Positions 359 to 20,976 of a stretch of DNA of 64,000 bases are shown here, one piece after another. Position 1 is the stretch's first letter; every line of letters begins with the position of its first letter. The position numbers and the translations under genes were made by a program. Under the pieces are notes generated by a model. It was not told the DNA's origin, ran no database searches, and saw only the letters and a program-made list of their open reading frames with translations. Origin of the DNA: Antedon mediterranea (Eukaryota > Animalia > Echinodermata); assembly GCF_964355755.1 (NCBI RefSeq), contig NC_092672.1, positions 1,860,001 to 1,924,000 of the forward strand, given 5' to 3'.

Positions 359-362
359 TCTC

Positions 363-682
363 TAAAGAGACTGTTTATGTTTACTTATTAACCTAGGAGG
401 ACAATTAAGTCTCTTCGGTGTAACTACACACTCATCATTTGTACTCACCTAATCCTTTCTAGGCTGGTACGTGATGGGTATAGTTTGTGTCCTTCTTTGG
501 TTGTGTCTTCGCTTCAAGAGAGAGAGTTTTGCCTCTCGCACATTCAACGCCTGGGGCTGGTCGTGACGTATCTCGCCACTGGCCAGTCCCAGGGCCGGAT
601 TCGGGGGTTGAGTGCGCGTAGGCCCGGCGATTGGCTGTGACGTATAGATGACGTAACCACTAGCCAATCGCCAGGCACTACA
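363..682 (-). repeat. 3' LTR (320 bp)
   Basis: Copy of 12335-12654; preceded on the minus strand by a purine tract and followed by the TSD GAGA. Confidence 0.96.
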
Positions 683-720
683 ATCCTCCTCGTTTTATTT
701 TCTTTGTTTCCTGCCCCCCT
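683..720 (-). other. Polypurine tract
   Basis: Purine-rich ...GGGCAGGAAACAAAGAAAATAAAACGAGGAGGAT directly abuts the TG of the 3' LTR. Confidence 0.8.
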
Positions 721-797
721 GACTATTCTCTGACTGGTCTTCCCAAGGGAGACAGGCGCATTTTAGTTCACCGTCAGTGTCTGACATTGCTGTTCAA

Positions 798-990
798 TTT
801 GATATTGGATTTCAAGTTCATTTGAAAGTTCATTTGATTTCAAGTTCATTTGAAAGTTCTTTTGATTTCCAGTTCCTTTTAAAGTTCATTTGATTTCAAG
901 TTCATTTGAAAGTTCCTTTGATTTCCAGTTCCTTTTAAAGTTCATTTGATAGTTCCTTTGAAGGTGCACTTTGATTTTAAGTTCATTTTC
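798..990. repeat. Degenerate short-period tandem repeat (AAGTTC(A/C)TTTGA-type units) in the element 3' UTR
   Basis: About a dozen aagttc/cagttc units spaced 13-15 nt apart. Confidence 0.8.
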
Positions 991-1021
991 CATGGTGGGT
1001 CCTCCACTCCTTCCTCTTCTT

Positions 1022-1062
<41 letters not shown>

Positions 1063-1865
1063 GTAACACAACGGGGGGCACAGCCCCAACAAGAACAGGA
1101 TTTGAACAACTGAACACCAGAACGTCAAGGTGGGGGAATTACCCCAACAATTACAATTTGAACATATGAAAGCCAACAGGGGACTAAAGAGTCCCGAATA
1201 AAAAAATGTTGCCATAACAATCGAACAGTGGGCAATACATACGAACAATTGAAAAAAGAAATAAAGAAACAAGAAAATCAAATCCCTTCAAGCCATGTGG
1301 CATAGGGTATCCATCGGGTTGCTGACCGGCACCGCGTTCCAGGGAACACTGGTACCTGACAGCCCCCCGGAAGAGAACAAATCTGAGGAACACCGTTCTA
1401 GGGGTACAGAATTACAGATTTGAGAAAAGAAGGCACAAGCCTATGGGGATTGGCAAAAATTTAGCACACAACAGTAAAATTTTGTTCTGGAATTCCAGTA
1501 TATAGGGCTGACTGTTTGTGTGTATACAAAATATTTTAATTATGAGGGAAATTGTCAAAAAGAGACCGCACTGCCAATCGTAATTGAAACAAGGGACTTA
1601 CGGTCCCAGCTAAATAAGTAGAGGACATGTTGGACCTCAAATTTTGGGGTGGGAAGAGGATTTGCTCTTCGCCAATTTTTGGGCGTGCGGTGACTAAGGA
1701 CAGACAATTGTCCTGGGGTACAACAATGTTATACGCAAGTACACCAAGAAGGGGTGTACTGTATTCAAGTGATTAGAACGGTGTGGTATAGTAATAATCG
1801 TTTTGAAGAATTGAGTCCTGTTAAAGAATTGAGTTCTTTTACTTTTTTTTTTTTTTTTCTTTATT

Positions 1866-1909
<44 letters not shown>

Positions 1910-1945
1910 TATATATCCAAACCAACGGCTCCCGTGGCGTGATCC

Positions 1946-3727
1946 TTAGCTGCCCCATTCTTGCTCCAAGGTCAGCCCGTCCAGGAACACCTGCAGCATT
2001 CGGACCGCCGCTTCCCTGGTCTTTTTGTGGGCTGAGCGTCTGAGACAATCCGCCAGCCGCTGGTTTGCCTTGTAGGCCTCTTGGAGGAGACGTCTGTCTT
2101 CAGGCGTCGGTTCGGGGTGCGCCCCAAGGGCTTCACTCCGACCAGCCTGTGCCAACACTGGTGGTTGTTTGATGGAGACGGCTACCTTCTCGACAACTGC
2201 TGGTGCTGTCTCTTCTCTAGGTTGGGCTGGCCTTGATCTGGATGCCTCCCTTCTCCTGTTGATACTTGGAGGCGGTTTGGCTCTGCGAGACGCCCCACGG
2301 TGAGGAGTGAATCGATCCAAGAGATCGACCATCCCCCCCGGGTTCGCCTCCCAAGCCTCGGCCAGGAGCTCCAATAAACAATGTGGGTATAGCAGCGCCA
2401 GTGGACACTGCAGGTTGGTGATATCTACCCACGTTGCTGGCTCTTTGCATCCCACTGCCCGAGCGGTCAACCGCAGGATGGTCATCCACTTGTTGGACAG
2501 ATCGTGGGAACCTCGCGATGGCAGTTTCTGGCGGCACAGCGTCACTGCTCCCTCCAAAGTCGAAGCCTGCCTGGGTAACAGGGAGACCACTCCTTTGACG
2601 AACTCCCAGCGACGGCGGTGAGTTCTAGCGTCGTCCCTGATGTTTGCGGTTCCTATAAATCGGGGGGCGTGCACTAACAGGTGGTCTTTTGATGTGCCCT
2701 GTTGCACGGTACACGCCTTGATGGGGCAAGGGTAGCTCGTCCGCCGCAGTTTTGGTGGTGATGGACTATGTCTCCTTTCGGCGGTCGTGTGGCTAGCCTC
2801 TGTGGCCCCCGTGGGCGCCACTTGGCGTTCCACTTGAGCCCCAGAGGCATGACCACCTTGTGCGCGTCCTTGACTGGACTCGTCTCGGCGGTGACTTGTC
2901 CAACTGTCATCTGGCCGGAAGGCGCGCTTGCCTGGTTTCCTCGATTCTCGAGGTTCCACTTCTTTCTGGTGATCGGTGGACTTCTTGTATCGTATGTCCG
3001 TTGCTCCAAAGATCGGGTCCTCTGCCTGGGCCATCTTCTTCCCGACCAGGTCCCCGACGGACAGGGTACCGAGGTCTGGGCCCTCCAACCGGCAAGTTAT
3101 TCGGTCTGGTCCGATCGTTTGGATCACCCGACCTGCCACGACGCCCCTAGTCAGATCCTGAGCCAGGAGGCGAGCGGTGCAGTCGAGTGGCTGGCGAGGC
3201 GGCAACCCCGCAATATCGATGTTGGCTTCGAACTCGGTGCCATTCTGAAGCCTCACAATAGCATCGAACGAGCCCCTTGTTGATATCCGGTTAGTTCTCT
3301 TCAGGCGCACCTGCTGCCCAACACTGACCCGCGGTTCAGTATTTGGCCGCAACAGGAGCGGCGATGCTGGCCTCTCTGGTGAGGTGGAAACATTTTCCGC
3401 TGGCTGGCGCCTCCCTCCTTCTAGGAGTAGAGGAGACGTCGCTGGCGTTCTTCTTTGTGCTGGTGGCTCTGCTCGGTTGTTGTCCTCTGCCCCTGGGGAT
3501 AAAAGGAGTGCGGCCACGGCAGATATGTTTGTCGGCGGCGGGCCCTCTCCTTGCCCAGCGGGCAAGGGGCCGGACCCGTCCCGAGGTGGAGCTTCTTCTC
3601 CTCCGGAGGGTAGCGGAGTGGTCGCCCTCTCGGAGGCCCGGGCAGGGGCAGGCAAAGAAGGGAACTCCCTCTCCACTAGCTCTGCCCAGTCCATTGGCGT
3701 CACAGCTTCTGAGTAACTCTTTTCCAT
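1946..3727 (-). CDS. Retrotransposon ORF3, unknown function, not env-like
   Basis: ORF of about 600 codons between pol and the 3' LTR (track 1946..3769). The likely start is ATG 3727, after a splice acceptor at 3737-3735. No signal peptide or TM helix seen; has a CX4CX9HX3H motif. Confidence 0.8.
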   Translation of the reverse strand: MEKSYSEAVTPMDWAELVEREFPSLPAPARASERATTPLPSGGEEAPPRDGSGPLPAGQGEGPPPTNISAVAALLLSPGAEDNNRAEPPAQRRTPATSPLLLEGGRRQPAENVSTSPERPASPLLLRPNTEPRVSVGQQVRLKRTNRISTRGSFDAIVRLQNGTEFEANIDIAGLPPRQPLDCTARLLAQDLTRGVVAGRVIQTIGPDRITCRLEGPDLGTLSVGDLVGKKMAQAEDPIFGATDIRYKKSTDHQKEVEPRESRKPGKRAFRPDDSWTSHRRDESSQGRAQGGHASGAQVERQVAPTGATEASHTTAERRHSPSPPKLRRTSYPCPIKACTVQQGTSKDHLLVHAPRFIGTANIRDDARTHRRRWEFVKGVVSLLPRQASTLEGAVTLCRQKLPSRGSHDLSNKWMTILRLTARAVGCKEPATWVDITNLQCPLALLYPHCLLELLAEAWEANPGGMVDLLDRFTPHRGASRRAKPPPSINRRREASRSRPAQPREETAPAVVEKVAVSIKQPPVLAQAGRSEALGAHPEPTPEDRRLLQEAYKANQRLADCLRRSAHKKTREAAVRMLQVFLDGLTLEQEWGS

Positions 3728-3824
3728 ATTTGATCTGAAAGACATAATGAAAAGCACCTTTCCAATCATGGTGAATGTGAATTACAGTGTTAGTCAGCCC
3801 GGGGTGAGACGTTTGAATGCGGAT

Positions 3825-6800
3825 CTACTCGGCACACTTGGTACATTTAAATCGATCGATATCGATAGCTTCCGCTGGAGTAATGTTGACGCATGCTCCA
3901 TGGTACCATTCACCGCACAGATCGCACTCGATCATAAAACGCCCCTCCCATGGCTTCCTACAAGTACAGTAAATGCCGTCATCTTCGGCATCCCCGTCGG
4001 GGTCGGAATTCGTCAGATCAAGGTTGGTGATCCAATTTGGCAAATCCCGATCCCGGCAGAGCTTCAGTTTATCGTGGTGGATTACAAATATTTTATTGCG
4101 GAGACGTACGCGGAAGGCGTACGGGGCCAGCACCTCAGTGACTACCCCCGGACCCTTCCATGGCGCATTCAATTTCTTGTTTTTTCCCTTTATTTTGGTC
4201 TGGTCGAACACATAGACTTTGTCCCCAACTGCGTATGTACGCTCTAGTAGCTTAAGGTCGTATTGATACTTATTGCGCTTTTGCATTGATTTTAGATGTG
4301 TTCTTGCAATATCGTGCGCTAACTTCATATTTTCTACTAGGCCAGTGGTGTATGAATACGGATCAGTAATTGTTGTGCCCCCTGAAGAGCCGAACATGAG
4401 GTCGGGTGGTGTCGATACCTCCCTGCCCAGCATCATCAGGTTTGGTGTAGATTGGGTACTTCGGCATACCGTGGCCCTAATTGCACTCGTTATCTGGGGC
4501 AGATATTTATCCCAGTCCTTTTGTTGTTTTCCCACAAAACACCGGACCGCATTCATCACAGTCAGATTGTAACGTTCTACCTGACCGTTAGCTGAAGGAC
4601 GGTACGGCGTGGTGTGGGTCTTATTAATGAGGAGAATCTTGCAGAGCTCCCCGAAGAGATCGCTCTCAAAATTCGGACCCTGGTCCGAGTGCAATTGCAG
4701 CGGCATACCAAATCTGGAGAAGAATTCCCTTACCAGTACCTCGGCAGTCAATTGTGCAGTCTGCCGGGGTACCGGGTAGGCCTCTACCCATTTTGTAAAT
4801 TGATCCACTACCATCAATACATACAGATTCCCACTACTGGACTGAGGAAATGGTCCTGCAAAGTCTATGTGAACCCTTTCCATTGGGGCTCCCGAGTGGT
4901 AATTAATCTGTTCCGAGCGGCCTTTCTTATTCCCCCTCTTGTGGCTGTTACATATGGGACAGCCTATGACATATCTTTCGATATCCCCGGCCATCCCAAA
5001 CCAGTAGTATCGTTGTTTAAGACGGAGCTTAGTCCGTTTGATACCTTGGTGGGCGGCCGATGGGAGATCATGATAAGCTTGCATTGTTGTTTTAATCAAT
5101 GACTTCGGAAGAACAAGAAGGTCCTCCTCCCCCTGTTTATCTTGAATGAATAACACCCCGTCTCGCAAGCACATCCTTTCCTTACTCAACCAATAATGTT
5201 TTGTTGCCGGGCTAGTAGCGAAAAGCTCATTTGCCGAAGGCAGCGCGTCACCCTTAAACCAGAGTAACACGGGCCCCAGCTCCTGGTCTTTCCCCTGAGC
5301 CTCTTGGATTTCCTGGGTAGAGAAACCCCAATGAGATTGCTCCGCCCTATCCGTGGTTAGTTGATGAACATGTTGGGAGGGCAGGAAAGGCTGCGAGATA
5401 GGTTGATTTTGATGTGTGTGCACACCCGTCAGCGGAATGACGTCATCAACCTGGTCGATGAACGCCCCCCATTGCTGGTGCGCACGTACACAGTACTTAC
5501 ACCCCTTGCAAGGTAAATCAGATAATTTCACCCCATGTTTGTAATGATTAGCCATTTCAGGTGCCCGTGACAATGCATCGGCATTGACATGTTTTTTACC
5601 AGGGCGGTGTTCTACTATCATTACATACTGGCTAAGTTCTTCTATCCAGCGGGCCAGTTGCCCCTGGGGTTCCTTGAACCTCAGAAGCCAAGTCAGGCTA
5701 CTGTGGTCGGTGCGAACCTTAAATGGTTTACCCAGCAAGTAGTGTCTAAATTGACGTGTGAATTTCACAATCGCCAACAGTTCTTTACGGGTGGTACAGT
5801 AGCGTTGCTGCTCTGATGTTAATGCTAAACTAGCATAAGCAATCACACGCTCCTGACCCCCTTGTAATTGGGACAATTCACCTCCGATTGCCTGATCTGA
5901 TGCATCGGTATCAAGGACGAACATGTCATCAGGATTCGGAAGTGACAAAACTGGTGGTTGTGTCAACTTAGATTTAATTGAGTGAAATGCATCTATTTGA
6001 GGTTTGTCCCATCGGAACTCCCCCTTCTTTGCAACTGCATAAAGAGGTCTTGTTAATTCGGCAAAGTGGGGAATGAATGCCCTATGGTAATTTGCTAGGC
6101 CAAGGAAGCGTTGAGCCTCCTTGTAGTTCTTAAGATCAGGCCACCCACACACTGCCGCGATATCGGTATCGGACATCTCGAGAGTGTTGCGGGAGACCAT
6201 ACGGCCCAGAAATTCCACTTTCCTCTGGAAAAATAGACATTTCTTTGGTTTTAGTTTCAGATTATATTGTCGGAACCGACCTAGGGCCTCCCTTAAGTTA
6301 TTGCTGTGGTCTTCAAATGATTTGCCCAGGATAACCACGTCGTCGAGGAAAGCCAGAGCAGTCTGCCAATTTAGACCACGCAAAACCATATTGATGACCC
6401 TAGAGAAGGTTGCCGGACTATTACACAGGCCAAAGGGCATTTTTACAAACTCGAACAGGCCATATTTGGTGACGAAAGCGGTCTTTTTGCGATCGTCGGC
6501 ATTGAGGTTTATTTGCCAATAACCAGAAATGGCGTCCAATTTAGAGAACCATTGATTACCCGACAATGTGTCGAGGCAATCCTCTAAAATTGGTAATGGA
6601 TATACATCCTTTACCGTGATGTTATTTAAAGCCCTATAGTCTATGCAAAATCTGACGTTTCCATCCCTTTTCCGGACTAGGACTGGGGCGGAGGACCATT
6701 CAGAATTGGACGGCTGAATGATACCCCCCTCCAGCATCTTATCCAGTTCTTTGCGTTCTTCATCGGCAAAGTGTAACGGGGTACGGCGAAGTCGGTGTCT

Positions 6801-7751
6801 CACTGGAGCTGCATCAGACGTATCTACCCGGTGATCAATATTAGGGACCTCCCCAATATCGAATTGATCCCTGGCAAACACATCTGCGAACTCAGTAAGC
6901 ATCTCCTTCACCACCCCTGCCTGATCTTCCGATAAATTGGTAATAGAATTTTCATAAGTTGTACGCATATGATGTGGCAATGCGTGTGTGGCCGGAGAGG
7001 TTTCCCCCGGATGGGTGAAAACTTCCCCAGCTACACAGGATTCTATTTCAGATGCAAACCCAATTTCTAAACCTGCTTTGACAGTTACGTATTTGTTGGT
7101 TGTATTGACCATGCAGATCACAGGCGATTCACCTGCGGTGTGCACAGTTCTAGGAATTGTTAGGTTATTGTGGCCATGAGGTTCTACAATGTAGTCATGC
7201 AATTTGGTATCTAACTGACATGAAACATAGGCTATTGATGTAGGTGGTATCACACGCCGCTTGCATGTGATTACTCTGCAGCTAGAGGGCGTTGAGGGCG
7301 CCATACCATTTTGTATTAATGGGACAGCAACCCCACCGACCTTTAACAGCATTTCGCCTATGTTTACATCTGCGTTTGTGCCCCTCATGAAATCTAAACC
7401 CAATAGCATTTCGTCTTCAATCGGTGCAACATAGACATAAGTGGGATAGATGTTTGGCCCAATTTCGAGTTGCACCGGACCTATTTTTCGCCCTTCCATC
7501 GAACTACCCTTACCCGCCATGAATAATTTAATAGTACCCACTGTGGGCGGAGTAGGGGTAATTGAATGGTATAAGCTATCAGATATAATAGATACAGTCG
7601 CTCCACAGTCGACCACAGCGTCAACTTTAACGGATGCGACCGTAACTTTAGTGTAGAGTAATGAATTAGATTTCACTCGCTGTACAATAAGTGATTCAGT
7701 TGGGTCGCACTCTGGAGTGAACAATTTGGAGTCGACCCCTAGTCGTTTAAA
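3825..7751 (-). CDS. pol: Pol (protease, RT, RNase H, integrase, PHD finger), expressed as Gag-Pol by -1 frameshift
   Basis: VVDCGA protease; RFCIDYR, MPFGL and FLDD RT motifs; TDASD..ELLA..TDH..NADALSR RNase H; H-x6-H..CPIC zinc domain; HIDF/SDQG/VERYN DDE triad; WKGP motif; terminal C4HC3. The frame is open from the slippery site at 7751. Confidence 0.96.
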   Translation of the reverse strand, partial: FKRLGVDSKLFTPECDPTESLIVQRVKSNSLLYTKVTVASVKVDAVVDCGATVSIISDSLYHSITPTPPTVGTIKLFMAGKGSSMEGRKIGPVQLEIGPNIYPTYVYVAPIEDEMLLGLDFMRGTNADVNIGEMLLKVGGVAVPLIQNGMAPSTPSSCRVITCKRRVIPPTSIAYVSCQLDTKLHDYIVEPHGHNNLTIPRTVHTAGESPVICMVNTTNKYVTVKAGLEIGFASEIESCVAGEVFTHPGETSPATHALPHHMRTTYENSITNLSEDQAGVVKEMLTEFADVFARDQFDIGEVPNIDHRVDTSDAAPVRHRLRRTPLHFADEERKELDKMLEGGIIQPSNSEWSSAPVLVRKRDGNVRFCIDYRALNNITVKDVYPLPILEDCLDTLSGNQWFSKLDAISGYWQINLNADDRKKTAFVTKYGLFEFVKMPFGLCNSPATFSRVINMVLRGLNWQTALAFLDDVVILGKSFEDHSNNLREALGRFRQYNLKLKPKKCLFFQRKVEFLGRMVSRNTLEMSDTDIAAVCGWPDLKNYKEAQRFLGLANYHRAFIPHFAELTRPLYAVAKKGEFRWDKPQIDAFHSIKSKLTQPPVLSLPNPDDMFVLDTDASDQAIGGELSQLQGGQERVIAYASLALTSEQQRYCTTRKELLAIVKFTRQFRHYLLGKPFKVRTDHSSLTWLLRFKEPQGQLARWIEELSQYVMIVEHRPGKKHVNADALSRAPEMANHYKHGVKLSDLPCKGCKYCVRAHQQWGAFIDQVDDVIPLTGVHTHQNQPISQPFLPSQHVHQLTTDRAEQSHWGFSTQEIQEAQGKDQELGPVLLWFKGDALPSANELFATSPATKHYWLSKERMCLRDGVLFIQDKQGEEDLLVLPKSLIKTTMQAYHDLPSAAHQGIKRTKLRLKQRYYWFGMAGDIERYVIGCPICNSHKRGNKKGRSEQINYHSGAPMERVHIDFAGPFPQSSSGNLYVLMVVDQFTKWVEAYPVPRQTAQLTAEVLVREFFSRFGMPLQLHSDQGPNFESDLFGELCKILLINKTHTTPYRPSANGQVERYNLTVMNAVRCFVGKQQKDWDKYLPQITSAIRATVCRSTQSTPNLMMLGREVSTPPDLMFGSSGGTTITDPYSYTTGLVENMKLAHDIARTHLKSMQKRNKYQYDLKLLERTYAVGDKVYVFDQTKIKGKNKKLNAPWKGPGVVTEVLAPYAFRVRLRNKIFVIHHDKLKLCRDRDLPNWITNLDLTNSDPDGDAEDDGIYCTCRKPWEGRFMIECDLCGEWYHGACVNITPAEAIDIDRFKCTKCAE
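7702..7751 (-). promoter_or_regulatory. -1 programmed ribosomal frameshift signal (U UUA AAC plus downstream hairpin)
   Basis: TTTAAAC at 7751-7745 in the gag frame just before the TAG; pol is in the -1 frame; 6 nt downstream GGGTCG-ACTC...GAGT-G-CGACCC can form a stem (7738-7702). Confidence 0.88.
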
Positions 7752-9949
7752 GAGTCTTCTTCATCTACATCGAATTCATGTTCGACTAGATTTAGCCTTC
7801 TGTTTTGCTTGAAGTTTGATTTATTATTATGTGGTCTATTTGAATTATTGGGAGTCTTGGTGGGGCATTCCCTTGCGAAATGACCCTCCTCACCGCAGGA
7901 GAAACAGCCGGCCCCTCTCTCTGGAGATCTACGTCGAGCCGGGGATGGTTGCCTCTCGCGCGGCCTATCAAGGCGATCTAATACCTTGTCCATTTTCGAA
8001 CAAAGGGCCGAGACCTGTTCTTGCAATTCGTTTATTCGGGTGTTGGAAGCATGAACAGATTCCCGGTCCAGAGAACGATCTCGATATCGGGCACCATGGG
8101 GCGATTGCGGACGTGCAAAACGCACCACGCGCCGTTTATCCTCCCTTTTAGTTAATTCATTAATCCGCCCAAAGTCACCCTCAGCCTGCAAGTTGCACTC
8201 CTGAACACTAGGTTCTGGGTACACCTGGCAGACAGTGGATGGCTGAGGTGGAGTTTCTGGCAGATGTGTAGTTGGTGTTGAGGCCAATTTAGGTGTTATT
8301 ATTGGTTCATCGTTGACACTCTGGTGCCATTCGATAAGTCGGATAGCTTCAGGAATTGTTTTGGGCCGCTGCAGGCTAGCAAATTTGCCGCTTGGCCTAT
8401 CAACACACCCACGACAAAACTTTAAAGCTGCCATTTCTTGGATCCAATGATTGGTGGCCCCTTCACCCCCTTGCGTTCTATACGCCTTGGCTGCGGCTTT
8501 AAGCACTCTGGCTCCCCACTCACGTAGGGACTCCAGGTCTTTTTGGATAAGTTTCTCAAATTTTGCAGCCAGAAGAGATTGGTCTTGGGCGGAGCCAAAG
8601 TATTCGTTAAAACTAACGATGAGCCTCTCGTAAGAGACTGCACTACCATGCAAGGTCAGCAACGTTTGTAAGTACGCGGCTGCCTGGCCCCTCATGCTCA
8701 TGTGGAAAGCTTCCTTGCGTTCGGCCCTAGACCATCCATTAATCTGGGAAAATCCCTCAAATCTATCATGGAATATTCCCCAGTCGTCATCCCCACCGTG
8801 GAATTCTAGATGTTTTTGCGGCCTGAAAGGCTGTTGACCCCGATGATCACCGCGGCCCCACTCGTCCCGCAAGGGTAGGCGGTCAAGCCTATTCCTCTCG
8901 GGGCGAGGAGGTCGAAGGAATCGTCCGAGATCGTGCTCATAATTTTGATGATCATTTCTCCCACCATAATCACCCATCTGATAATTATCTCGGTTGATGT
9001 TTTGTAAGGGTGGTGGTGGTTGATTATAATTCATTCCAGGGGCGGAAGGATGACGAGGACGATAGCAATCGTTGTCCAGGTACCCCCGGTTGTAATTATC
9101 ACCTCCGTACCCATGGTCACCTTGAGGGTAGGAAGGTCGAGTTCCCCATGAGGGATCTCGGTTCTTATTTTGAGCAGTAGGGCGTTGAGGTAGGCCATGT
9201 TCAACAGCGGCATCCCCCCGTCCTACGTTGGTGTTACAATTTATTTCTTTTTCTCGATCCGAATGATCGGGAGGGTAGCCGTGTTCTACAGCTGGATAGC
9301 CATAAAAACCAGCCCCAACCCGGTCATAAGGATGGGCGTCTTCGTTTCCCCCAGCTCCCGTGCGAGCACATGTACTGGGAGACGGTGAAGTATCCACCAT
9401 GTGCACTCCAGAACGGTCAAGAGATCTACCCCGACCAGCAGCAACAGGGCCGCTGGTCGCAGTGTCACCCCTTCTCATTGGAGTACGTGGAAAAACCTCA
9501 TCGCCACCCGTATCGCCCGCCCGGTGGTTGTTGTGGAGCGTACGGGAATCTGGGTTGCTAGGCACGCTTGCCTGGTCTGCATAGCGTTGATCGCCTCCGG
9601 CCCCCGGATGCAAGGATGGGTCGCTCGGCAAAGGTGGTACGGGGGTGCAGGCCTGCTCGGGAGCTTGATCGTGCTCTCCCGAACCGTTACCAGCATCTCC
9701 ATACCCCCCAGTCGGCGGTCCCATTCTCACATACCGAGAGTTAATGGCATAGTCCATGTTAAAGGACAAAAAGTCGAACGAATTATCGCCGACTGCCCGT
9801 GCTAGATCTTGTGGGTTTGTGATATTCCCATAATTATCCCTGTAGGCCCTGATTTTCTCGGCCAAGGGTGGGGGTAAACCCTGTGGGAAATCTTTCGCCC
9901 TACGGACAAAGTTGATCTTAAAAGGTATTGGTTCGATGGTTTTTGGCAT
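7739..9949 (-). CDS. gag: Gag (736 aa): N-terminal HhH-like segment, long disordered region, capsid-like core, CCHC zinc knuckle
   Basis: CFSCGEEGHFAREC knuckle (7865-7906); capsid-like FHGGDDDW..F..RFE...NGWS and QKDLESLREW motifs; lies upstream of pol. Confidence 0.92.
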   Translation of the reverse strand: MPKTIEPIPFKINFVRRAKDFPQGLPPPLAEKIRAYRDNYGNITNPQDLARAVGDNSFDFLSFNMDYAINSRYVRMGPPTGGYGDAGNGSGEHDQAPEQACTPVPPLPSDPSLHPGAGGDQRYADQASVPSNPDSRTLHNNHRAGDTGGDEVFPRTPMRRGDTATSGPVAAGRGRSLDRSGVHMVDTSPSPSTCARTGAGGNEDAHPYDRVGAGFYGYPAVEHGYPPDHSDREKEINCNTNVGRGDAAVEHGLPQRPTAQNKNRDPSWGTRPSYPQGDHGYGGDNYNRGYLDNDCYRPRHPSAPGMNYNQPPPPLQNINRDNYQMGDYGGRNDHQNYEHDLGRFLRPPRPERNRLDRLPLRDEWGRGDHRGQQPFRPQKHLEFHGGDDDWGIFHDRFEGFSQINGWSRAERKEAFHMSMRGQAAAYLQTLLTLHGSAVSYERLIVSFNEYFGSAQDQSLLAAKFEKLIQKDLESLREWGARVLKAAAKAYRTQGGEGATNHWIQEMAALKFCRGCVDRPSGKFASLQRPKTIPEAIRLIEWHQSVNDEPIITPKLASTPTTHLPETPPQPSTVCQVYPEPSVQECNLQAEGDFGRINELTKREDKRRVVRFARPQSPHGARYRDRSLDRESVHASNTRINELQEQVSALCSKMDKVLDRLDRPRERQPSPARRRSPERGAGCFSCGEEGHFARECPTKTPNNSNRPHNNKSNFKQNRRLNLVEHEFDVDEEDSLND

Positions 9950-12322
9950 CCCTGGAAGATAAGAAAAATCCTTCCCAATTAGTTTTATTCTTCATTTATA
10001 GGCCTGGTAAGTACTCCCGTCCCCCCGTGCATCCAACCAGCGAGCGGAGGTAGCATCGGTCTGATGCTGTTTCGATGATTATTTTTGCGTCTCACTCGTT
10101 GGGTGCCCAGAGAGAACAGGGGTAGTACCAGCCCAATACACACCTAGCGCTAATCACAGTTCAATCAAATATAATTACAATGTAAGGGTTACCTCCCCCA
10201 TCACAAAAATTTTAGCTAATTATGTGTACATATAATGATTTATGGGCACTCACATTATGCCACGAAAATAAAATAAAAGGACTACACAAATAGTACAGGT
10301 TAATGAAAAGAATATATGATATACAAGGCATGTGATAAGAGATACAAATCGTTACCAGATGTTATTATAGCCAAGTGTCAATGACATGGGCAAAACAAAA
10401 CATTACAGATTACACACTGTGACAGTTAAGAATCGAAATTCATACAAGACATGTTGAAAAATAATCATGATAAGAATAAGAACATACAAGAACATGCGAA
10501 AATAAATGAGACAAGACACGGAAAAAATTTTATTTTGAAAGAAAAAGGCATACAAGACATATAAATAATTCTAGGCAAAAACCTAAGATAATCAATAAAT
10601 AAATAAATATGCCTAAAGTATCACAAAAAATAATATTCTAACCAAAAATCAATAAATATTAATAAAATAAATATAGGTACCGGCCTAGCCTGTACCCTAC
10701 AAAATAATTCAATTCAAAAAATCTATGCTAAATAAATAGTACTGTACACTAATTCAAGACATACTAAAAATAATAACAACAGGAATAATTAAGCCTATGC
10801 ATAATTACCCCAAAAAATTAAAATAAATCATGAAAATAATAGGTAGGAAATTCAACTAGAATAACCACCTAATAAATAAAACATCGTCTAACTAAAACAA
10901 TAAAAATTTACTAAATAATTTTACGTCGAAAATAGTTCAATAAAAATAAAATAAATCAATCGGAAAATAACTTAATTCCAAGCAAACAATATACACGAAT
11001 GAATAAATAAATAAATAATAATCCTAATGTCATTCCCACCCAAGTGGGAGAGACAAAATAACTATAATCTAACTACCCCGCGATAGCACAGGCCAGAAAA
11101 TTCCAGCACGTCTATCGTCAGGCCATAAATCAATCCAGACAATACACAGACCGGGAGACGAGCTCTCCGTTCTGCATAAAACTAAAATCTAAAAATAGTA
11201 AGGAGTATCCCTATATTATTCTACCAATCAGAATACAGTACTCACCTAGCGTCATCATCGAAAGTCGTAAACAACTGTTGACCTCGTTGATGCAAGCAGC
11301 TATCCGCGAGGGTAGCAAGCGAATGCGTGCTCGCGATTGGCTAGCGATGAATCACACGTGAGAAGACTGATAGGCAGAAAGTTGCTGTTTGCTCAGGAAT
11401 GGCGGCATTCTCAAAGCAACGGCAGTGTAGATAAACTACTGTTTAACCCCGTTGTTCGTGAACACAAGTCGCCAAACCCGAGTCGGATTACCCTAACAAG
11501 CAACACCCTCCAATAACCTCGTTCTGTTGGTCGTAGGTTATGGTAGTGTAATTTAAGGATTAAAAATAATGATAATAAAAATCGTGGATTTGAATAAGCT
11601 AATAAATAATCAAAATACGCGAGAGATGCCAACCACAAAAAATGGCGTCACTCACTAAAAAATTGTTTCGAAATTAAATTTAATATTTTTCCTACAAATT
11701 ATAAATTTGCTAATTATTATGTTTTGTACATTTTTCCAATAATATTCTGAATCACGGGCCAGACATATTCATTGTTCTGGAATCACGGGCCCAGTGCGTT
11801 AAACATACAATAAAAAACGCTGTTCCATGTTCACGTGCATGGTATGTACGTAGCTTCGGCTAGGTCACGGGCCCAGGGCCCAGCCACATCGCTACACACA
11901 CTAATATCTTTTTCGGATCATTAGGAAATAAAAAATGTACCTATCCGAAGAATCAGAGTACAAATGGGTCCCCCATAAATATACTGTCTGACAATTCGGA
12001 TTACGGCACAAATCCAAGACGGAGAAATAATAATATAATTTACTATAAACAACTCCCGACGGCTCGACCCCATCGATCGGACGAAACCTGCAGGCACGAC
12101 AGCAGATTTCGGCCGCGAGACGGAGACGAGTCGTTGACGAGGTGGGAGATGGGTAGTGGGACGTGCTGCCCAGCAAACACAGAGGTCGTTCCTCCAGCAT
12201 TGCCTCTGGGCAACACCACAGGGCGAAACGAGATGTGCGAACTAGAACAACACTCCTACCTTCCCAAACAGCTACACGCGGTTGACAGTGTCCCCCGCCG
12301 AGGCAAAAGGAACACCAGTTTA

Positions 12323-12333
12323 CCTCGTCGCCA
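12323..12333 (-). other. Primer binding site, complementary to the tRNA-Ser(GCU) 3' end
   Basis: TGGCGACGAGG starts 1 nt after the 5' LTR; complementary to CCUCGUCG-CCA, the 3' end of metazoan tRNA-Ser(GCU) as recalled. Confidence 0.85.
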
Positions 12334-12334
12334 T

Positions 12335-12654
12335 TAAAGAGACTGTTTATGTTTACTTATTAACCTAGGAGGACAATTAAGTCTCTTCGGTGTAACTACA
12401 CACTCATCATTTGTACTCACCTAATCCTTTCTAGGCTGGTACGTGATGGGTATAGTTTGTGTCCTTCTTTGGTTGTGTCTTCGCTTCAAGAGAGAGAGTT
12501 TTGCCTCTCGCACATTCAACGCCTGGGGCTGGTCGTGACGTATCTCGCCACTGGCCAGTCCCAGGGCCGGATTCGGGGGTTGAGTGCGCGTAGGCCCGGC
12601 GATTGGCTGTGACGTATAGATGACGTAACCACTAGCCAATCGCCAGGCACTACA
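12335..12654 (-). repeat. 5' LTR (320 bp, TGTAG...CTTTA)
   Basis: No mismatches to 363-682 found by eye; followed on the minus strand by 1 nt and then the PBS. Confidence 0.96.
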
Positions 12655-13257
12655 TCTCCCCAGTACAAGGACTGATGGATAGATCTCTTCACCAGTCGGT
12701 ATGATTTGGTTGGCTGGTAACAGGAATCCATAATCACCAGTATCTCGTAGCTCCACCACGTATGAGTAGTTGGTTCCTAAGACACCACACGCCCAGTCAA
12801 GACTGGAACCTGAAGAAGCATCTGCAGTAAGAAGAACGATCACACAGATTATAAACTTGAAAACATCATGACTGATGAATCATTTTCATGAATTTACGTT
12901 TAGGCCTAGGAATCAGATTTTAAAAACCTTGCATCATGCAAATTCTCGCCTTGGTGGCTTATTCGAGATATGTAAAGATAAATATACTGTATACCCTTGT
13001 GAAGTCGTCTATGTATTGTGATTATATTCCCTTCTTTTCAGTACCGGTACAGCAGAAAACGACCCCACATTACATCAAGCAAGTATCAAGCAAGGATGAT
13101 TCCATATTTAATACATCTTAGAATGTGACATAAACATGGCATAATTGTAAACTTACACAATGTTTCAGCCAATGGACCGGATGTATATTCTTTCCCATGA
13201 ACCTTCTTGATTTCCGCTACAGCCTCATTTCCAAGAGCAAGCTACAGAAATGGTTAA

Positions 13258-13613
13258 AGGCCCATTTACACTAGGAGGATAACGATCGACGATAAATAGA
13301 CAAATGTGCATTTTTCATACATAAAACAAAAGAAATATAAAAACTTTTCATTGTAGAACTATAGAATAACCATCTATGCTTCCTTTGATGAAAATGATAT
13401 TTTCACACGACAATACAATGATTTTATTGTTTTTATTTATCATGACGTCTGATTTGATTGGAATTTTAAAAATATTATTTTTATCAAAGACAGCATAAAT
13501 GATTATCCTATAGTTCTAGAACGAAAACCTTTCTAAATTTACTTTGTTTTATGTAAAAAAAAAATGCATGTTTATTTATCGTCCATCGTTATCGTCCTAG
13601 TGTAAATGGGCCT
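13258..13613. mobile_element. PIF/Harbinger-type foldback MITE
   Basis: About 40-bp TIR AGGCCCATTTACACTAGGA.GATAACGAT.GACGATAAATA; TAA on both flanks; interior also imperfectly palindromic. Confidence 0.85.
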
Positions 13614-13832
13614 TAATACTGGACGTTACAAAATGTACAATGACCATTTTAATGTGACAGGCCTTGCCTAGACAGGCTAATATTTTATATTAGGCCTTGT
13701 ATAGCCTAGATAATTCTTATATTTCCCTGACGTCACCGTTTATATTTATAGTGAGTCTATTTAACGTGCAGCGCATGCGCTCTCCACACTGTACGCTCAG
13801 ATCTGGTTCGTCACGCGAGATGATATATTTAA

Positions 13833-15197
13833 AGTGGAGCTCCACCCAGAAAATTACTATTTTTCATACATTTCAACTATTATTTAAAAATATCATCCCT
13901 TATACTTCATATTTTTTTGAATTTTTTTTCAATGAGTACGATTTTCTTGAAAATCACGCCTTTTTGCGTTTTGGGGGGATACCTTGTAATTTCCTATTCT
14001 TTTACATGCAAAAGGGGGGTATATTTGAATAATCCTAAAAAATTCATTTCTTCACCAAAAAAAAAATGTAAAATGTAAATTTATGTAATTTTTCCAGATC
14101 TTTCTATTTCTGGTATCTTTATCACGTATACATTGCGCAATTTTGCGTAAATAGACACTTTCCCCCGTTCGGGTCCAATTGGGTTTTTTATTTTGCTAGG
14201 GAGTACGATCACGTGACATTTTTCACAATCGCACTACTGCAGCTGGCGATCTGTTATTTTGTCGCGATGTTATTTTTGACGGGCGAAAAGTATATTAAAA
14301 CATTCTGAATGTGACCCTATTATATTTCACAGTGTAATAATGTGATTATGAGACTATTACTAAAATGTCAAATTTAACGAGATTTGAGAAAGACGTGGCT
14401 ATACAGTATATTCAATAAAGCTAGGCCTAGGCCTACTAGAGTGTAGGTATGTACCGATCCTGCGTGGCCTCTAGCTAGGCTAGGCTGACAGCAGTGAAGT
14501 TTGTTTTGCTGGCACCCGACCTTGGCCTACCCATGGGCCATGATAGGGTGCCTGAATAGTTGCTTTTCAGTCAGGTCTAAGCTTGCACATCGCTTTACTA
14601 CTCTTGTTCTGTATACTATAGGATTTTGTGTTTCACAATTCTTAATGTGCGAGAAAACCCAGGAACGATAAATGGGGGCGAAACGACCATGCCTATGAAT
14701 ACATAGGCCTCTAGACAAAAATTCAAGGCTAGCTAGGCTGAGCACACGGCTGAGCTAGGCCTAGCCCTAGCTTAAAGTTAAAAGCAATCTGATAAGATTA
14801 TTATGCTGTTGTTGTACAGTGAAAATCATGAGGTTACATGTAAATTATACTGACATTCTTATCGGAAATATTACTTAGGCCTAAACAAATCGTATTAATT
14901 GTGTGTATAAAATTTATTCCCCATTTTTCGACACATAATTTACCCAAGGGGAGACATTTCATCAATGCGTTGAACGGCGACTAAAACGCGTCAGTCGCTA
15001 AGTGTATTGTAAACTAATAACCCCTAAGTTACTGAAAAACTGTAATGTGTTAAAAAACACTATTTTCTGACCGATTTTTTAGAAATGAGTTTTTGGAAAA
15101 TATTTCCGTATTTTTCCTGTTTTTTTTTATGTAATCACTTTCAATTAAACATACTTAAACATAATATAAGCTGAGAATGTCTGAGTGTAGCTCCACT
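13833..15197. mobile_element. Non-autonomous TTAA-targeting DNA transposon (Kolobok-like)
   Basis: TTAA at 13829-13832 and 15198-15201; TIR AGTGGAGCT(C/A)CAC(C/T)CAGA; purine-purine termini; no transposase ORF. Confidence 0.8.
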
Positions 15198-18100
15198 TTA
15201 AGTTAAGTTTAAAAGTTAGGCCTATGTGCTCACTTGTTGATCTGCGCCTTTTGGTGCTGGGGCAGCAGCAGAGTACGACCATGGTGCAAGCCAGAGCTGT
15301 GTATAGCTGTGCCAGTCTACATACACGGACTTCTTGCGTCTCAAATTTTCTAGATATTCAGTTACCAATTTGACTTCAATCTCTGAGTTTGGTTCACTCC
15401 CTCGGTATGTGAGTGTACACGGCCATGTACTGGCTCCCTCACCTGTAAATTTGTTAAAAAGATGATCGTTGAAAATGTTTTGCGTTAGCTTAGTGCAGTG
15501 AAAAGTTGCATATTACAAGAATACATTTGTAATGTTTAATTTACGTATGCCCCTACTTGAATGTATTAACTTATATTATATAACACCTAAATAAATTCTA
15601 AACTTCTTACGAAAGTTATTTTTTAAAAATCGAAAGTAAGGAAAAGAAATATAGTAAAGAACATTATTGTATTGTAGTATTACATCCCCATTCATAGGGC
15701 CAGTTTCTGTTGGGGTCAGTTCCCATGCACGGTGTGCCCGGATTCGGGGATCGAGTTTTACGCCAAAGACGATCCTAAAAAAATGTTGAAAAAAGATTGT
15801 GTTAGATAATACCATCAATAGTTTTCATTATCAACACATCTTTGTATTCTCTACAGCTTGCTTAGGCCTACTATATTCGTTTGCCTATTCTTACCACGTA
15901 TGTGGTTCTGAAAATAACTTTTGAGTTTCTGGGCGTTGTTGCTGACTAATAAAGATACTAAAAGAATGATTTTATGATAAATTATTATAATGGAAAAGAT
16001 GATGCTGTAAAATGTTGTGATGAGGATACTTAAAACATACTTATTTATTTCATTTCAACAATATTTTATGAGGATGGTGATGATATTAAAAAGTAAAAAC
16101 GATGGTAATGATACTCTAAAGTAGCGTCACTGCAAGTTCATTCATTCATCAGTGGAAAATTACTTCTATTTATTGTCATTTGGATATAGGCCTATACATA
16201 GAATGATGTATTATTTAATATGTTTCGTAACTCTGTACCACGATATTGATCATGGAAAAGGTGCTATGACGTAATTGCCAGAAGATTAATTTACATAATA
16301 TGTCCGGTGGTAAAAAAGTACATAGCTAAAGATTGCTGATACTTTCAGTCGCAAAGTTTTTATATTTTCAAGCAAATTTATTCCAAAGTATGCAATAATC
16401 AAATACAGATGTTACTCAAGCTGCTACGGTATTACACTAATTTGTAGGCAATGTAATGTGATGATTATTGTGAGCATAACATAAGAAAGTTGACTATAGG
16501 ATGTAGGCAGTTATTTGTTCTAATCTTGGGGACTTACCCCGCTCCATGTGTACGCATAGCCGTCCACATTGAGTGAAGGCACTATCAGCCAATCCAAGCC
16601 GTCCAGAAGACGTACTTCCTCGGCGCTACCGGCAACATAATTCTCAAGTAGCTATAAGATAAAAGGCATTATTAAAGCTATGTGGCGGGGGTAGGGGGGG
16701 GGGGGTGGTGATTGTGAAGAAAGATAAAGATAACAATTTGTCTGTAATCTGAAGACTATCAAACCACGTGGATAGACAGTATATAGTAAGATTAAATATA
16801 CTGTAAACAACATTATAAGTACAACATTTTCAACAAAAACATTTTTTTTTTTAAATAAAACAAACTTCTTACTCTGTTGGTGAAATACATCACTGTAGCG
16901 GGTGAAATCCATTCTCTTCCCATTCAACTGGTTTTCCTTGATTACCAGATCCCTTTATCTATTGTATTAAGTTTTAGAAAATTTCTTAAGAAATAATAAG
17001 AATAATAATAATATTATTGCATTGCAATCTGGGATGACGTAATAAACGTCTGTCTTACTAAGCGGGCAACAGCATTTGTAGACGTTGCAGGACCCATACT
17101 CGGTTATTAGGAAGAGTTCAAAAGTTTGACAGAAAATGGTATGATATGACGTTATCTTTTCCATTTGTTCATAAAGTTTGATAGTGTAGACAGAGCTTTA
17201 GGGTTCCTCATACCTTTATTCCTCCAATTGGTCTGCCTTTATACGAATTACCAATTGTAAATGCTTCTGTTATCCCTGGGTACGCGGCTACCATATCTTT
17301 AATCCATTGCTGAATCTAGATTTTAAAAAAAAGAACTATTTTTAGTCATATCCGGTTTCCTATTATCTACTAATATGAAAAAAATGAATTTCAAAAATTA
17401 TGTATTTTTGACACATTTTGAAGTTGTATGTAAATACTGTTCTTACCTCGTCGTACGTATGATACTTAGCATCGTCAAATGACGCTAGTCACTACTGGTC
17501 ACGCGGTCAACCATTCTCTGGTCATCTATAACTTTCTGGACATCATCCATCATCACATCAAATTCTAGGCCAGCAGCTTCAAGAAGTGTTTTGACATAGT
17601 GTTGTTCTTGTGGTTTTACCATGATGTCAACTGGTCTGGAGAGGACTCGTGTAGATTGCCAAAACTCCACTCTGTCTCCAAGTCGTTTTTCCATTTTATG
17701 CATCAGGTTCAGCTCACGTTCAGAATTTAACGTCACGCGGAAAACTTTATAACTGATTAATAGAAGAACGATGATTTTTTACAAAAGCACGAGAGAGAAT
17801 GGATGGAGCATGCAAGGAAGCAAAGAAAATAAAGCTGACATGATATGGTCATGTGCTCCGTTTAAATGATGATCACACGTAGGCCTACACAAGCCAAAAT
17901 TGCACTTAGAAAACCTCAGCAAAAGATCAATAAAATGACAAGCATTCAGAGAAACCAAACTGTTCACACACGCTAAAAAACGCACAGATAACACGCGCGC
18001 GCGGTATCTAAACGACGATCTAGCATTCATATGACATGTTTTGTGACTATAGTGACATGTTTTGTTAATATCTAATAAATAGACGTTTTTCGTTAAGATT

Positions 18101-20976
18101 TTTTTTGTAAACTTTGTTTAGAAGTTTCAATTATTATACTTACCCATCATAGCGCGTTTGTTCAGCAACCACGAGCGCAGCCAAGAGGCATAGCACAGCA
18201 ACCGTTTTGTAATAATTCATTGTTACCCCTGTGACATCAACTACTCTTATGAACTGTAAGTTTTGTATATTACAGAATGTATTCATTATAATCATTATAT
18301 AAATTAAATACTAACATATTGCTGTTATTAAGCCTTCTGCCGCGTTCCCACCCTGAAGATTTGATAAATGTTGTTATCGCAACCTTGTCGAACCACAGGC
18401 TTATTTTCACGTGGTCTGATTGTTTTTCGCGCGCTTTATCGGCAGTTGGTAGAATATGACGATTGTGAAAGATTATTTTGTTTCTCTGACAATCAATCTT
18501 CTTAATAGATCGAAATAATGGTATAAATTATTCAATATACTGTTTTCAAATAATGGCAATATTTTTTTCCAAATATCAACCCTGTAAAACAAATTACTCT
18601 AATGAACGATAAGTTTGCCATTAGAAAATGTACTATGTTATTAAATAAATACTAAACATATTGTTGTTAAACCTGCTGCCGAATTCTCATCCTGAAGATT
18701 TGATAAAAATGTTCTTGTTATCAAATCAAGCTTGACAACGAGCTTTGCCTGCCTCTCACAAGATTTGCTTTCTCTACAGCTCACTATGTCGGTCGGTTGG
18801 TCGGTCGGTCGGTCGGTAAACACTAACTTGAGCACGCGACTGCAGCCATGTATATGGCCTTTTTTTTATTTCCCCTCTTAGTTACTCACATTATTGTACT
18901 TTATTACTGTGAATGAAAGAGAGAAATAAATGTTACTTTTTAATTGACTTGAACTATATTTTTTTTTTCGCGCGGTTTGGTTATCTTTTCGCGCGCTTTA
19001 TCAGCAGTTGGTTTCGGATATTACGATTGTGCAAGATTATATTCTTGCTTAATAATCGATACATTATTCAATACTGTAATACCAAATGCAATTGAGAAGT
19101 TACTTATTTCCAGTGTACGACACAACGTTTTGTTTAAAATGTTAATTGTATAACTTGAATGGAATTTTAAGATGTTAAACCTTAACCTCATTTTTGTATT
19201 TTTTTATGAACATTTTAAACTTTGAACAAACGAAAATAATTTCAAACCATTTACTGTATTTGACAACAAATAAATATAGCATATGAATGGAATAAACTAA
19301 CGCAAAATAGCAGAAAAAATCAATTCAAATTCATGCAAAATATATTTTTATTTCAAAAGTCTGTTTAAATGAAATTGTTGTCATTGAACATTGTGTACAT
19401 TGTACGAAGAAAACCTAAATAATTTGGCAAATCAAAAGTTGTACTTAGACTAGAAATAAAGAAAAACAGAAAAAAATACTGTTAGATGAGCAGAATAATG
19501 CTAATTGTACATATTAATGATATTAATTACAAAGTTGACATAAAAGATTCACTGTCTTAACCTACTTAAGAGCAATAAAATGGTAATTTTGTTTGAATAT
19601 TTTACTTCCAATAAATAATAACAAATTCATTTTGCCATTAACAGATAATTATTGTTTTTTACCATTGATGTGAATATTTAAGGAAGATTTAAAACTGTCG
19701 TAGTTTCAAACTCAATTGTAAATAGGTGATTTAGTTAAAGATGTGGCTGGATAGATATATACACTTTGTATAAAGAATTAACAGTATGGGTTGTGGGCCT
19801 AATGGCAGTAGAATTTTCGGACAGCCCTATTAAAGGGACACTTTATTGGGTCCCGAAATATATAACAGGCGTTATAACTCTAAATAATTACACAGCAAGG
19901 CACATTTAAATTACATAACACATAACTGCATAGTAGAAATAGTAATTTTTGGTCTTTGCTCTTTAGATAAATAAAAATTAATGAAAAGTTGTCAAAAATA
20001 TAGTAATCATAAAATGTTAATTCATTATTTGTTAGAACATAATGTTTAATACAACTGAAATTGAACAATCAATCACAAGACATAATATTGCTGTTAGGTT
20101 AGGTTGTGCTTTCTTAATAAGAAACATTCAAAACAAAGACTAGCTTTATTTGTGTTTACATTTCTTGGTGGTCTTATAACAGGGACGGTGTGCTTCCTTA
20201 AGAAAATATAACAATAATATTGATAATCTATTAATCGATAACCATGTAAGAATTACATCTTGTATTTAAAATGTTACTACTCTGCCTATTATCAAATAAT
20301 CTTTGGCAATTTGGAAAATAAAATTGAAAGAAAGAAAGTTGATATTATGTTTTGATTGCAATAAATAAATAAACAACAATATAATAAGATAAATGAAATA
20401 GAAATAACAGAAAAACAAAATAATATTACTTATCGTAAATTTTGAAACATGAAATGTGGACTTATGTTATTATTCTATGCATATTGTCATAGAAGAATGT
20501 TCTAAAAGGATCTCTATATAAGATATTATATTAAGGTCCAATTTGAGAGCTGTCTGTGACAACAACCATACCTACAGAAATGTATTGTCATTCATTTTAA
20601 TAAATTATTAAATTATTTTTAAAAAGCGAGAATGGGAAGAATATAACAATAAAATCAATATAGAAATAAAATGTATCATATAAAATACATCATTATTTTG
20701 TACAAATTAAGATTATTACCTTATATGGTATTGTTATATTTAAAGCATTTTCATGCATAATTTAATCATTAATAAATAGATAAATAAATAATGTTATTCC
20801 AGATTTGTTAATAGTTTAAAGATAAAATAATTTAAAGAAAAGGTTTCGAAAGCATTTGCAAGATACAATATTTTACATTTTACCAAACATTTCACAACAA
20901 TCATATATTATCATACAACATTTTAGTCACACTGGTGAAACTAAAAAGATCAAAAACATTGCCAAACAAAGACTAA

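Follow-up and report, generated by a model that had tools for sequence, protein, structure and literature searches.

Why does the Pol polyprotein of a Gypsy LTR retrotransposon in the genome of a crinoid, Antedon mediterranea, end in a PHD finger of the H3K4me3-reading type, and could such a finger influence where the element integrates? We addressed these questions in a 64,000-nucleotide stretch of the genome (NC_092672.1, positions 1,860,001 to 1,924,000), referred to below in its entirety as the window, and in related proteins and metagenome loci.

Structure and insertion site of the element

An intact Gypsy LTR retrotransposon occupies positions 363-12654 of the window on the minus strand. 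The element, its domains and the host gene around it are laid out as follows.

359..362, second copy 12655-12658, no strand: target-site duplication of 4 bp; the empty-site joint skips 12,296 bases, or 12,292 + 4
363..682, minus: 3′ LTR
683..703, minus: polypurine tract preceding the 3′ LTR
1946..3727, minus: ORF3, 593 aa; C2H2-like finger and helical domain present, TatD lacking; homologous to ORF3 of relatives
3825..7760, minus: pol frame, 1311 aa, stop-free (stop codon 3825-3827), with protease, RT, RNase H, integrase and PHD
3828..3974, minus: C4HC3 PHD finger, final Pol domain, residues 1263-1311
3975..4049, minus: acidic linker from integrase tail to PHD; the block modelled with least confidence, and one that varies more than the PHD
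4050..5120, minus: integrase, with an H2C2 zinc domain, rve core and SH3-like C-terminal domain bearing a WKGP (GPY/F-type) motif; family profile A1 matches PDB Ty3 Gag-Pol at E 7e-16
7739..9991, minus: gag frame, first ATG at 9949, with a CCHC knuckle, weak Retrotrans_gag/PNMA matches and a weak N-terminal HhH match
7745..7751, minus: TTTAAAC heptamer within the gag/pol overlap, pol in the -1 frame
12323..12333, minus: putative PBS-like stretch with TGG at its start, a single base inward of the 5′ LTR
12335..12654, minus: 5′ LTR, 320 bp, TG...TA, 100% identical to the 3′ LTR
12655..18220, minus: host M14 carboxypeptidase gene, ATG at 18220, propeptide and catalytic exons; the last coding exon is split by the element a few codons before the stop

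Direct LTRs, a PBS-like stretch, a polypurine tract and a target-site duplication are all found, as in Ty3/Gypsy elements generally, with LTRs that end in TG...TA rather than TG...CA, and Pfam matches recover the Pol order PR-RT-RH-IN with an RVT_1-type RT. Three other assignments were considered and rejected. The presence of LTRs and RT rules out a Ginger1 DNA transposon, a group defined by TIRs and the lack of RT; a chromovirus identified by its chromodomain is excluded by the lack of any Chromo match at E ≤ 0.1 in the window (Pfam), the integrase C-terminus being occupied by the PHD; and an env-carrying, errantivirus-like element does not fit an ORF3 that has no Pfam env match and is homologous to zinc-finger/TatD ORF3s.

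Because pol overlaps gag in the -1 frame at TTTAAAC, this heptamer is likely to be a -1 frameshift site; a hairpin downstream of it scored z = -0.8, not above shuffled sequences. The Gag N-terminus (window 9750-9880) contains a weak helix-hairpin-helix-like motif (E 0.018), and an ORF in one related locus (L008:3988-4566), probably a Gag start, matches Pfam HHH_3 at E 1e-8. In its 3′ non-coding part, the element carries a tandem array with a 28-bp period and long T runs (window 776-1060 and 1840-1910).

Contigs of three of the four runs (X1, X6 and X9) contain the empty site, with position 357 joined to 12654, and thus the insertion is recent and polymorphic. The element is still mobile, as reflected in its identical LTRs, its polymorphism and its disruption of the last exon of a host gene. 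It lies 5,565 bp from the carboxypeptidase ATG, with 362 bp of the other flank in the window, and this single insertion site (n = 1) does not favour promoter targeting. The last carboxypeptidase intron also holds a palindromic element, probably a MITE (window 13257-13614), whose depth is very high in three of the four runs. Further along the window are exons encoding a Ras-family GTPase (24493-24909, minus strand) and ribosomal protein L23a (27925-28278, plus strand).

Class, cage and conservation of the C-terminal finger

A first-pass annotation of this DNA had described Pol as ending in a complete C4HC3 PHD finger after a WKGP motif and an acidic linker, and this description held: WKGP is at Pol residue 1201 (window 4160), the finger begins at residue 1263 (window 3974) and reaches the exact end of the 1311-aa frame, and Pfam PHD (PF00628) matches residues 1265-1309 at 33 bits (cut-off 24), after protease, RT, RNase H, H2C2 and rve. 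The integrase tail gives weak, sub-threshold Pfam matches to SH3_Tf2-1/Integrase_p58_C, and the finger follows this SH3-like tail, at the position where chromoviruses carry a chromodomain, as had also been proposed. A strict C4HC3 pattern with the Met and Trp occurs once in the six frames of the window and in none of 200 shuffles.

The PDB sequences closest to the finger are those of KDM7A, PHF2 and PHF8 (E ~1e-14), among 43 at E ≤ 0.01, which agrees with the BPTF/CFP1/PHF2-PHF8/DIDO pattern recognised earlier; with a family profile, CFP1, PHF2 and BPTF obtain nearly equal scores. H3K4me3-reading PHDs possess a cage with an invariant Trp (PMC3241642, in excerpt), and PHF2 holds K4me3 by Y14, M20 and W29, with Y7 as a cap, holds R2 by E22, and contacts the H3 amino terminus via I45 and the D46 backbone (PMC8166343, in excerpt). 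The window finger has the C4HC3 zinc ligands of this class and a cage of the expected composition (two to four aromatics, including the invariant Trp, plus Met): Y1264, W1271, M1276 and W1285 align with PHF2 Y7, Y14, M20 and W29, so that the Tyr, Met and Trp listed in the first-pass annotation are indeed retained. E1278 aligns with PHF2 E22, as expected for an acidic Arg2 pocket, and equivalents of F19, I21, I45 and D46 are present (I1301 and D1302 for the last two, by alignment), with Pro at the E39 position; the D1280 position is Asp in 36 and Glu in 5 of 50 relatives. PHDs that read unmodified K4 lack a cage and have a cluster of acidic residues ahead of the first Cys, and H3K4me3-specific PHDs show no binding to K4 when it is unmodified (PMC3241642, in excerpt); the window finger has a cage together with an acidic linker before its first Cys.

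We compared the finger with the PHDs of PHF2/PHF8/KDM7A, BPTF, CFP1 and DIDO (PDB 3kqi, 7m10, 3kv5, 2f6j, 9c0o and 4l7x), with which it shares ~50% identity and the same cage positions; it differs from these host domains in having Trp at Y14, Pro at E39, a loop one residue shorter and a fusion to integrase, and in that its binding is predicted. A model built from a 45-sequence alignment had pLDDT values of 88-97 across the PHD and 58 in the linker, and superimposed on PHF2 and KDM7A with an rmsd of 0.8-0.9 Å over 48-49 residues (0.8-1.2 Å for PHF2, KDM7A, BPTF and DIDO chains), a fit that is expected for a well-known fold and is no demonstration of binding. Single-sequence folding of the PHD was poor (pLDDT 51.5) and was set aside. 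The alignments support assignment of the finger to the PHF2/PHF8/KDM7A-BPTF-CFP1-DIDO type with its cage positions kept, and we consider it quite probable that this domain binds the methyl-K4 H3 tail.

The PHD is under purifying selection. Close variants in contigs of the four runs, which are not independent lineages and from which one row outside pol was excluded, comprised 10 changes in the PHD, 7 synonymous and 3 non-synonymous (pN/pS 0.10; P = 0.0007 vs neutrality), none of which hit a zinc or cage residue. The same variants gave 7 synonymous and 9 non-synonymous changes in the linker (pN/pS 0.37), a value that does not differ significantly from that of the PHD (Fisher P = 0.25).

Over longer distances, seven positions are invariant across 45 sequences (C179, C182, W185, H187, C190, C206 and C209), and in 50 strict fingers the first cage position is Tyr or Phe in 46, Met is kept in 44 and Trp in 48, with all three kept in 41. 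The integrase tails of these 50 proteins are 32-49% identical to that of the window (P0154 aside), and a close PHD relative from A. mediterranea is 96% identical. The second cage position, equivalent to Y14, is aromatic in 13 of the 50 fingers, Asp in 30 and Glu in 6, and given this variation mark preference may differ within the lineage. We take the Asp found here to occupy the same position as the cage Asp of TAF3. An Asp in the PHD cage is recorded for TAF3 (PMC3241642, in excerpt).

PHD fingers and basic tails across the lineage

An HMMER search with the last 211 residues of Pol, PHD included, returned 7,107 matches at E ≤ 0.001, the best 150 of which were used; it was the productive search, word-index searches having returned 2, 1 and 2 matches. 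We classified 154 proteins, consisting of these 150, P0001, P0002, P0154 and the window protein, with P0003 excluded as a cluster mate. A full PHD was present in 55, a partial PHD in 9, a basic C-terminal motif in 41 and neither in 25, and 24 were too short to tell; these counts come from the best 150 of 7,107 matches, ranked by a PHD-containing query, and are not prevalences. Absence or decay of the finger in related copies had been named at the outset as evidence against a functional reader, and the 64 full or partial fingers in this set, together with the purifying selection described above, point the other way.

The 41 PHD-less sister proteins have an acidic tail followed, within 11 residues of the C-terminus, by [TS]RxGR..P..L.DY. 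This basic motif may resemble nucleosome-anchoring peptides of the acidic-patch/CENP-C type, and no published account of it was among the papers that our literature search listed. None of the 64 PHD proteins among the 154 classified carries the motif, the pattern for which was composed after inspecting the tails. Six PHD-less metagenome loci fetched later (L017, L018, L020, L021, L026 and L027) all have the acidic tail and the motif, degenerate in one case, and 18 of the best 80 of 405 metagenome loci have an integrase tail plus PHD. Because the PHD-less sisters end in a basic tail and none of the 64 PHD proteins has both, the pattern suggests that one tether replaced another.

We built an integrase-only tree from the 40 of 105 labelled proteins with at least 200 aa of integrase. 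The 22 PHD rows and 18 motif rows required one change, compared to a shuffled mean of 13.4, and none of 500 shuffles was as low. Twenty PHD rows form a clade with a support of 99, and the full PHD/motif split has a support of 81, unstarred, in a tree that is unrooted; in this unrooted tree, a single branch separates the PHD-bearing elements from the tail-bearing ones. In the ESM Atlas, a cluster with 80 members has the PHD in 99% and rve in 94%, with Mollusca commonest among the 24 members of known phylum. By these sequence comparisons, the PHD is a lineage-wide trait and not a one-off capture. A tree of the PHDs and 43 non-integrase fingers from metagenome loci, over 48 columns, had 1 starred branch of 90 and 10 changes vs 31 after shuffling, and neither a donor host gene nor monophyly of the PHD can be claimed from it. 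The earlier interpretation is supported in part, for the type of finger, its cage positions, its place in Pol and its upkeep in relatives; methyl-K4 binding and targeting are predictions.

Possible roles of the finger and the accessory ORF3

Several known transposons resemble the window element in part. Chromoviruses such as MAGGY have the same Gypsy Pol order and a histone-reader domain after a GPY/F-type integrase tail, but their reader is a chromodomain associated with heterochromatin, whereas that of the window element is a PHD of the class that reads an active mark, with targeting predicted. Chromodomain-tipped Ty3/Gypsy integrases were described by Gao et al. 2008, as cited in PMC6673714 and 10.1101/2021.11.30.470311 (both in excerpt). 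Chlamydomonas Gypsy-7a_cRei, which we liken by description, is likewise a Gypsy LTR element; its Gag-Pol includes a PHD, for which a role in targeted insertion has been suggested, but it is algal and its figure legend orders PHD before INT, so its finger is probably not C-terminal (10.1101/2022.06.16.496473, in excerpt). Ginger1-9_HM has a Gypsy-like integrase with GPY/F and then a C-terminal PHD, but it is a DNA transposon, having TIRs and lacking RT, and its PHD lies beside an Ulp1 protease domain (PMC2836005, in excerpt). Arthropod CopiaMBD is an LTR element whose host-type epigenetic reader has been suggested to guide its insertion, but it belongs to Copia, its methyl-CpG binding is shown, and the chromatin concerned is silent, not active (PMC6673714, in excerpt). 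PHDs also occur on Chlamys and CR1 elements (PMC8557442, in excerpt), and a 172-genome survey records PHDs co-occurring with retrotransposon domains, including integrases (10.1101/2021.11.30.470311, in excerpt).

The caution in the first-pass annotation that other transposon groups carry PHDs was therefore justified, and the novelty of the fusion is lowered by these published PHD-retrotransposon fusions and by the breadth of the lineage. In full-text searches, chiefly of openly available papers, we found no description of a Gypsy lineage from animals whose integrase ends in a PHD of the H3K4me3 type; Supplementary Table 6 of 10.1101/2021.11.30.470311 may list it. Mollusc and annelid LTR surveys (PMC6238403 and PMC8556966) do not mention PHDs in the portions available, nor does the main text of PMC5890265. 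Although PHD-transposon fusions are already in print, the animal lineage would extend the chromovirus idea, with targeting as yet unproven. Integrases tipped with chromodomains or MBDs steer into silent chromatin, and an H3K4me3-class reader of the element's own would, if the prediction is true, be a natural example of the opposite strategy, one that otherwise appears in the literature consulted, partly in excerpt, as an engineered fusion.

We assign a probability of roughly 0.55 to the reading that the PHD binds methylated H3K4 and tethers the integrase-cDNA complex to H3K4me3/2 nucleosomes, biasing insertions toward active chromatin. Mature integrase would keep the PHD on a flexible linker, the PHD on the integrase-cDNA complex would bind H3K4me3/2 tails, and tethering to nucleosomes with these marks would shift target choice toward active chromatin, the finger having functionally taken over from the basic tail as a chromatin tether. 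Direct support comes from the fusion to integrase in one frame, the kept cage and zinc residues, purifying selection, lineage-wide presence and mutual exclusion with the basic tail. In addition, an ING2 PHD fused to the integrase-binding domain of LEDGF moved HIV-1 integration toward TSSs (PMC8149907, in excerpt), and thus promoter-directed targeting by a PHD is feasible. Counting against the tether are the 3′-exon insertion (n = 1), the variable second cage position, the change of E39 to Pro and the acidic stretch before the first Cys. The PHD-bearing Gypsy-7a of Chlamydomonas inserts into intergenic sequence 2.6 times above chance (10.1101/2022.06.16.496473, in excerpt), an excess that fits targeting or selection and does not show promoter targeting.

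Exclusion between PHD and basic tail also fits a finger that binds H3 tails simply to anchor the complex to chromatin, through nuclear retention or nucleosome capture, as the replaced basic tail would, with little or no promoter bias. The exchange with a basic motif, the position of the lone insertion in a 3′ exon and the variability of cage position II across the family would suit such an anchor, as would the argument of Grau-Bove et al., from the near absence of TE-bromodomain fusions, that targeting of active chromatin is costly (10.1101/2021.11.30.470311, in excerpt). However, the methyl-K4-specific Met and Trp persist in most strict fingers despite the divergence of the adjoining integrase tails (32-49% identity to the window's, P0154 aside), and some mark bias would be expected of a domain whose H3K4me3-specific counterparts do not bind unmodified K4 (PMC3241642, in excerpt); we regard this main alternative, an anchor with little or no promoter bias, as rather unlikely. 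It is less probable again, and in our view improbable, that the finger recognises a methyl-lysine mimic on a protein other than a histone, or that it serves some purpose apart from integration, such as retention of Pol or ORF3 partners at the element's own LTR promoter. The PHF2 PHD does bind an H3 mimic, VRK1 (PMC8166343, in excerpt), and the element encodes an accessory ORF3 with a zinc finger, joined by TatD in most relatives, but the PHD sits at the end of integrase, the place of known tethers, and no candidate ligand was found. That the finger is a passenger, a captured host exon in decay, would account for the partial or degenerate fingers of some cluster representatives (9 of 64 partial), but the low pN/pS, the invariant positions and the presence of the PHD across one side of the integrase tree largely refute it, and we give it very little credence.

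Comparison of PHD-bearing and tail-bearing sisters bears on the tethering model, since the two share the rest of the element and so provide a clean comparative test. The ORF3 of relatives is 590-870 aa long and combines a C2H2-like finger with a TatD nuclease domain, and ORF3s were noted after pol in L001, L003, L004, L006, L008, L009, L011 and L014. Of nine ORF3 pieces scanned, eight matched the TatD DNase domain of Pfam at E values from 1e-21 to 1e-38, DxHxH and ETDxP motifs being present, and the contig of the ninth stops where the TatD region begins. The TatD ORF3 is common to both tail types because the PHD-less sister L021 also carries one (L021:2586-3227). Tentatively, and at somewhat less than even odds, we propose that a Gypsy lineage of animals (echinoderms, molluscs and others), so far undescribed, gave up a basic tail that binds nucleosomes and took on an H3K4me3 reader in a single exchange, and would aim integration at active chromatin, a mirror image of the chromoviruses. 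The tail-bearing sisters, which belong to the same TatD-ORF3 clade, would then serve as an internal control.

The ORF3 of the window matches the finger and helical domain of its relatives' ORF3s with an hhalign probability of 87.5 and, in a separate comparison, an E value of 1.5e-4, and its only close relative is an A. mediterranea protein with 36% identity. A search of the ESM Atlas with ORF3 gave no usable match, and a literature search for TatD together with gypsy retrotransposons yielded nothing but one wheat genome paper. In the window (3735-3750) and, by eye, in 7 of 10 related loci, the ATG of ORF3 is closely preceded by a pyrimidine tract and AG; expression of ORF3 from a spliced subgenomic message is suggested.
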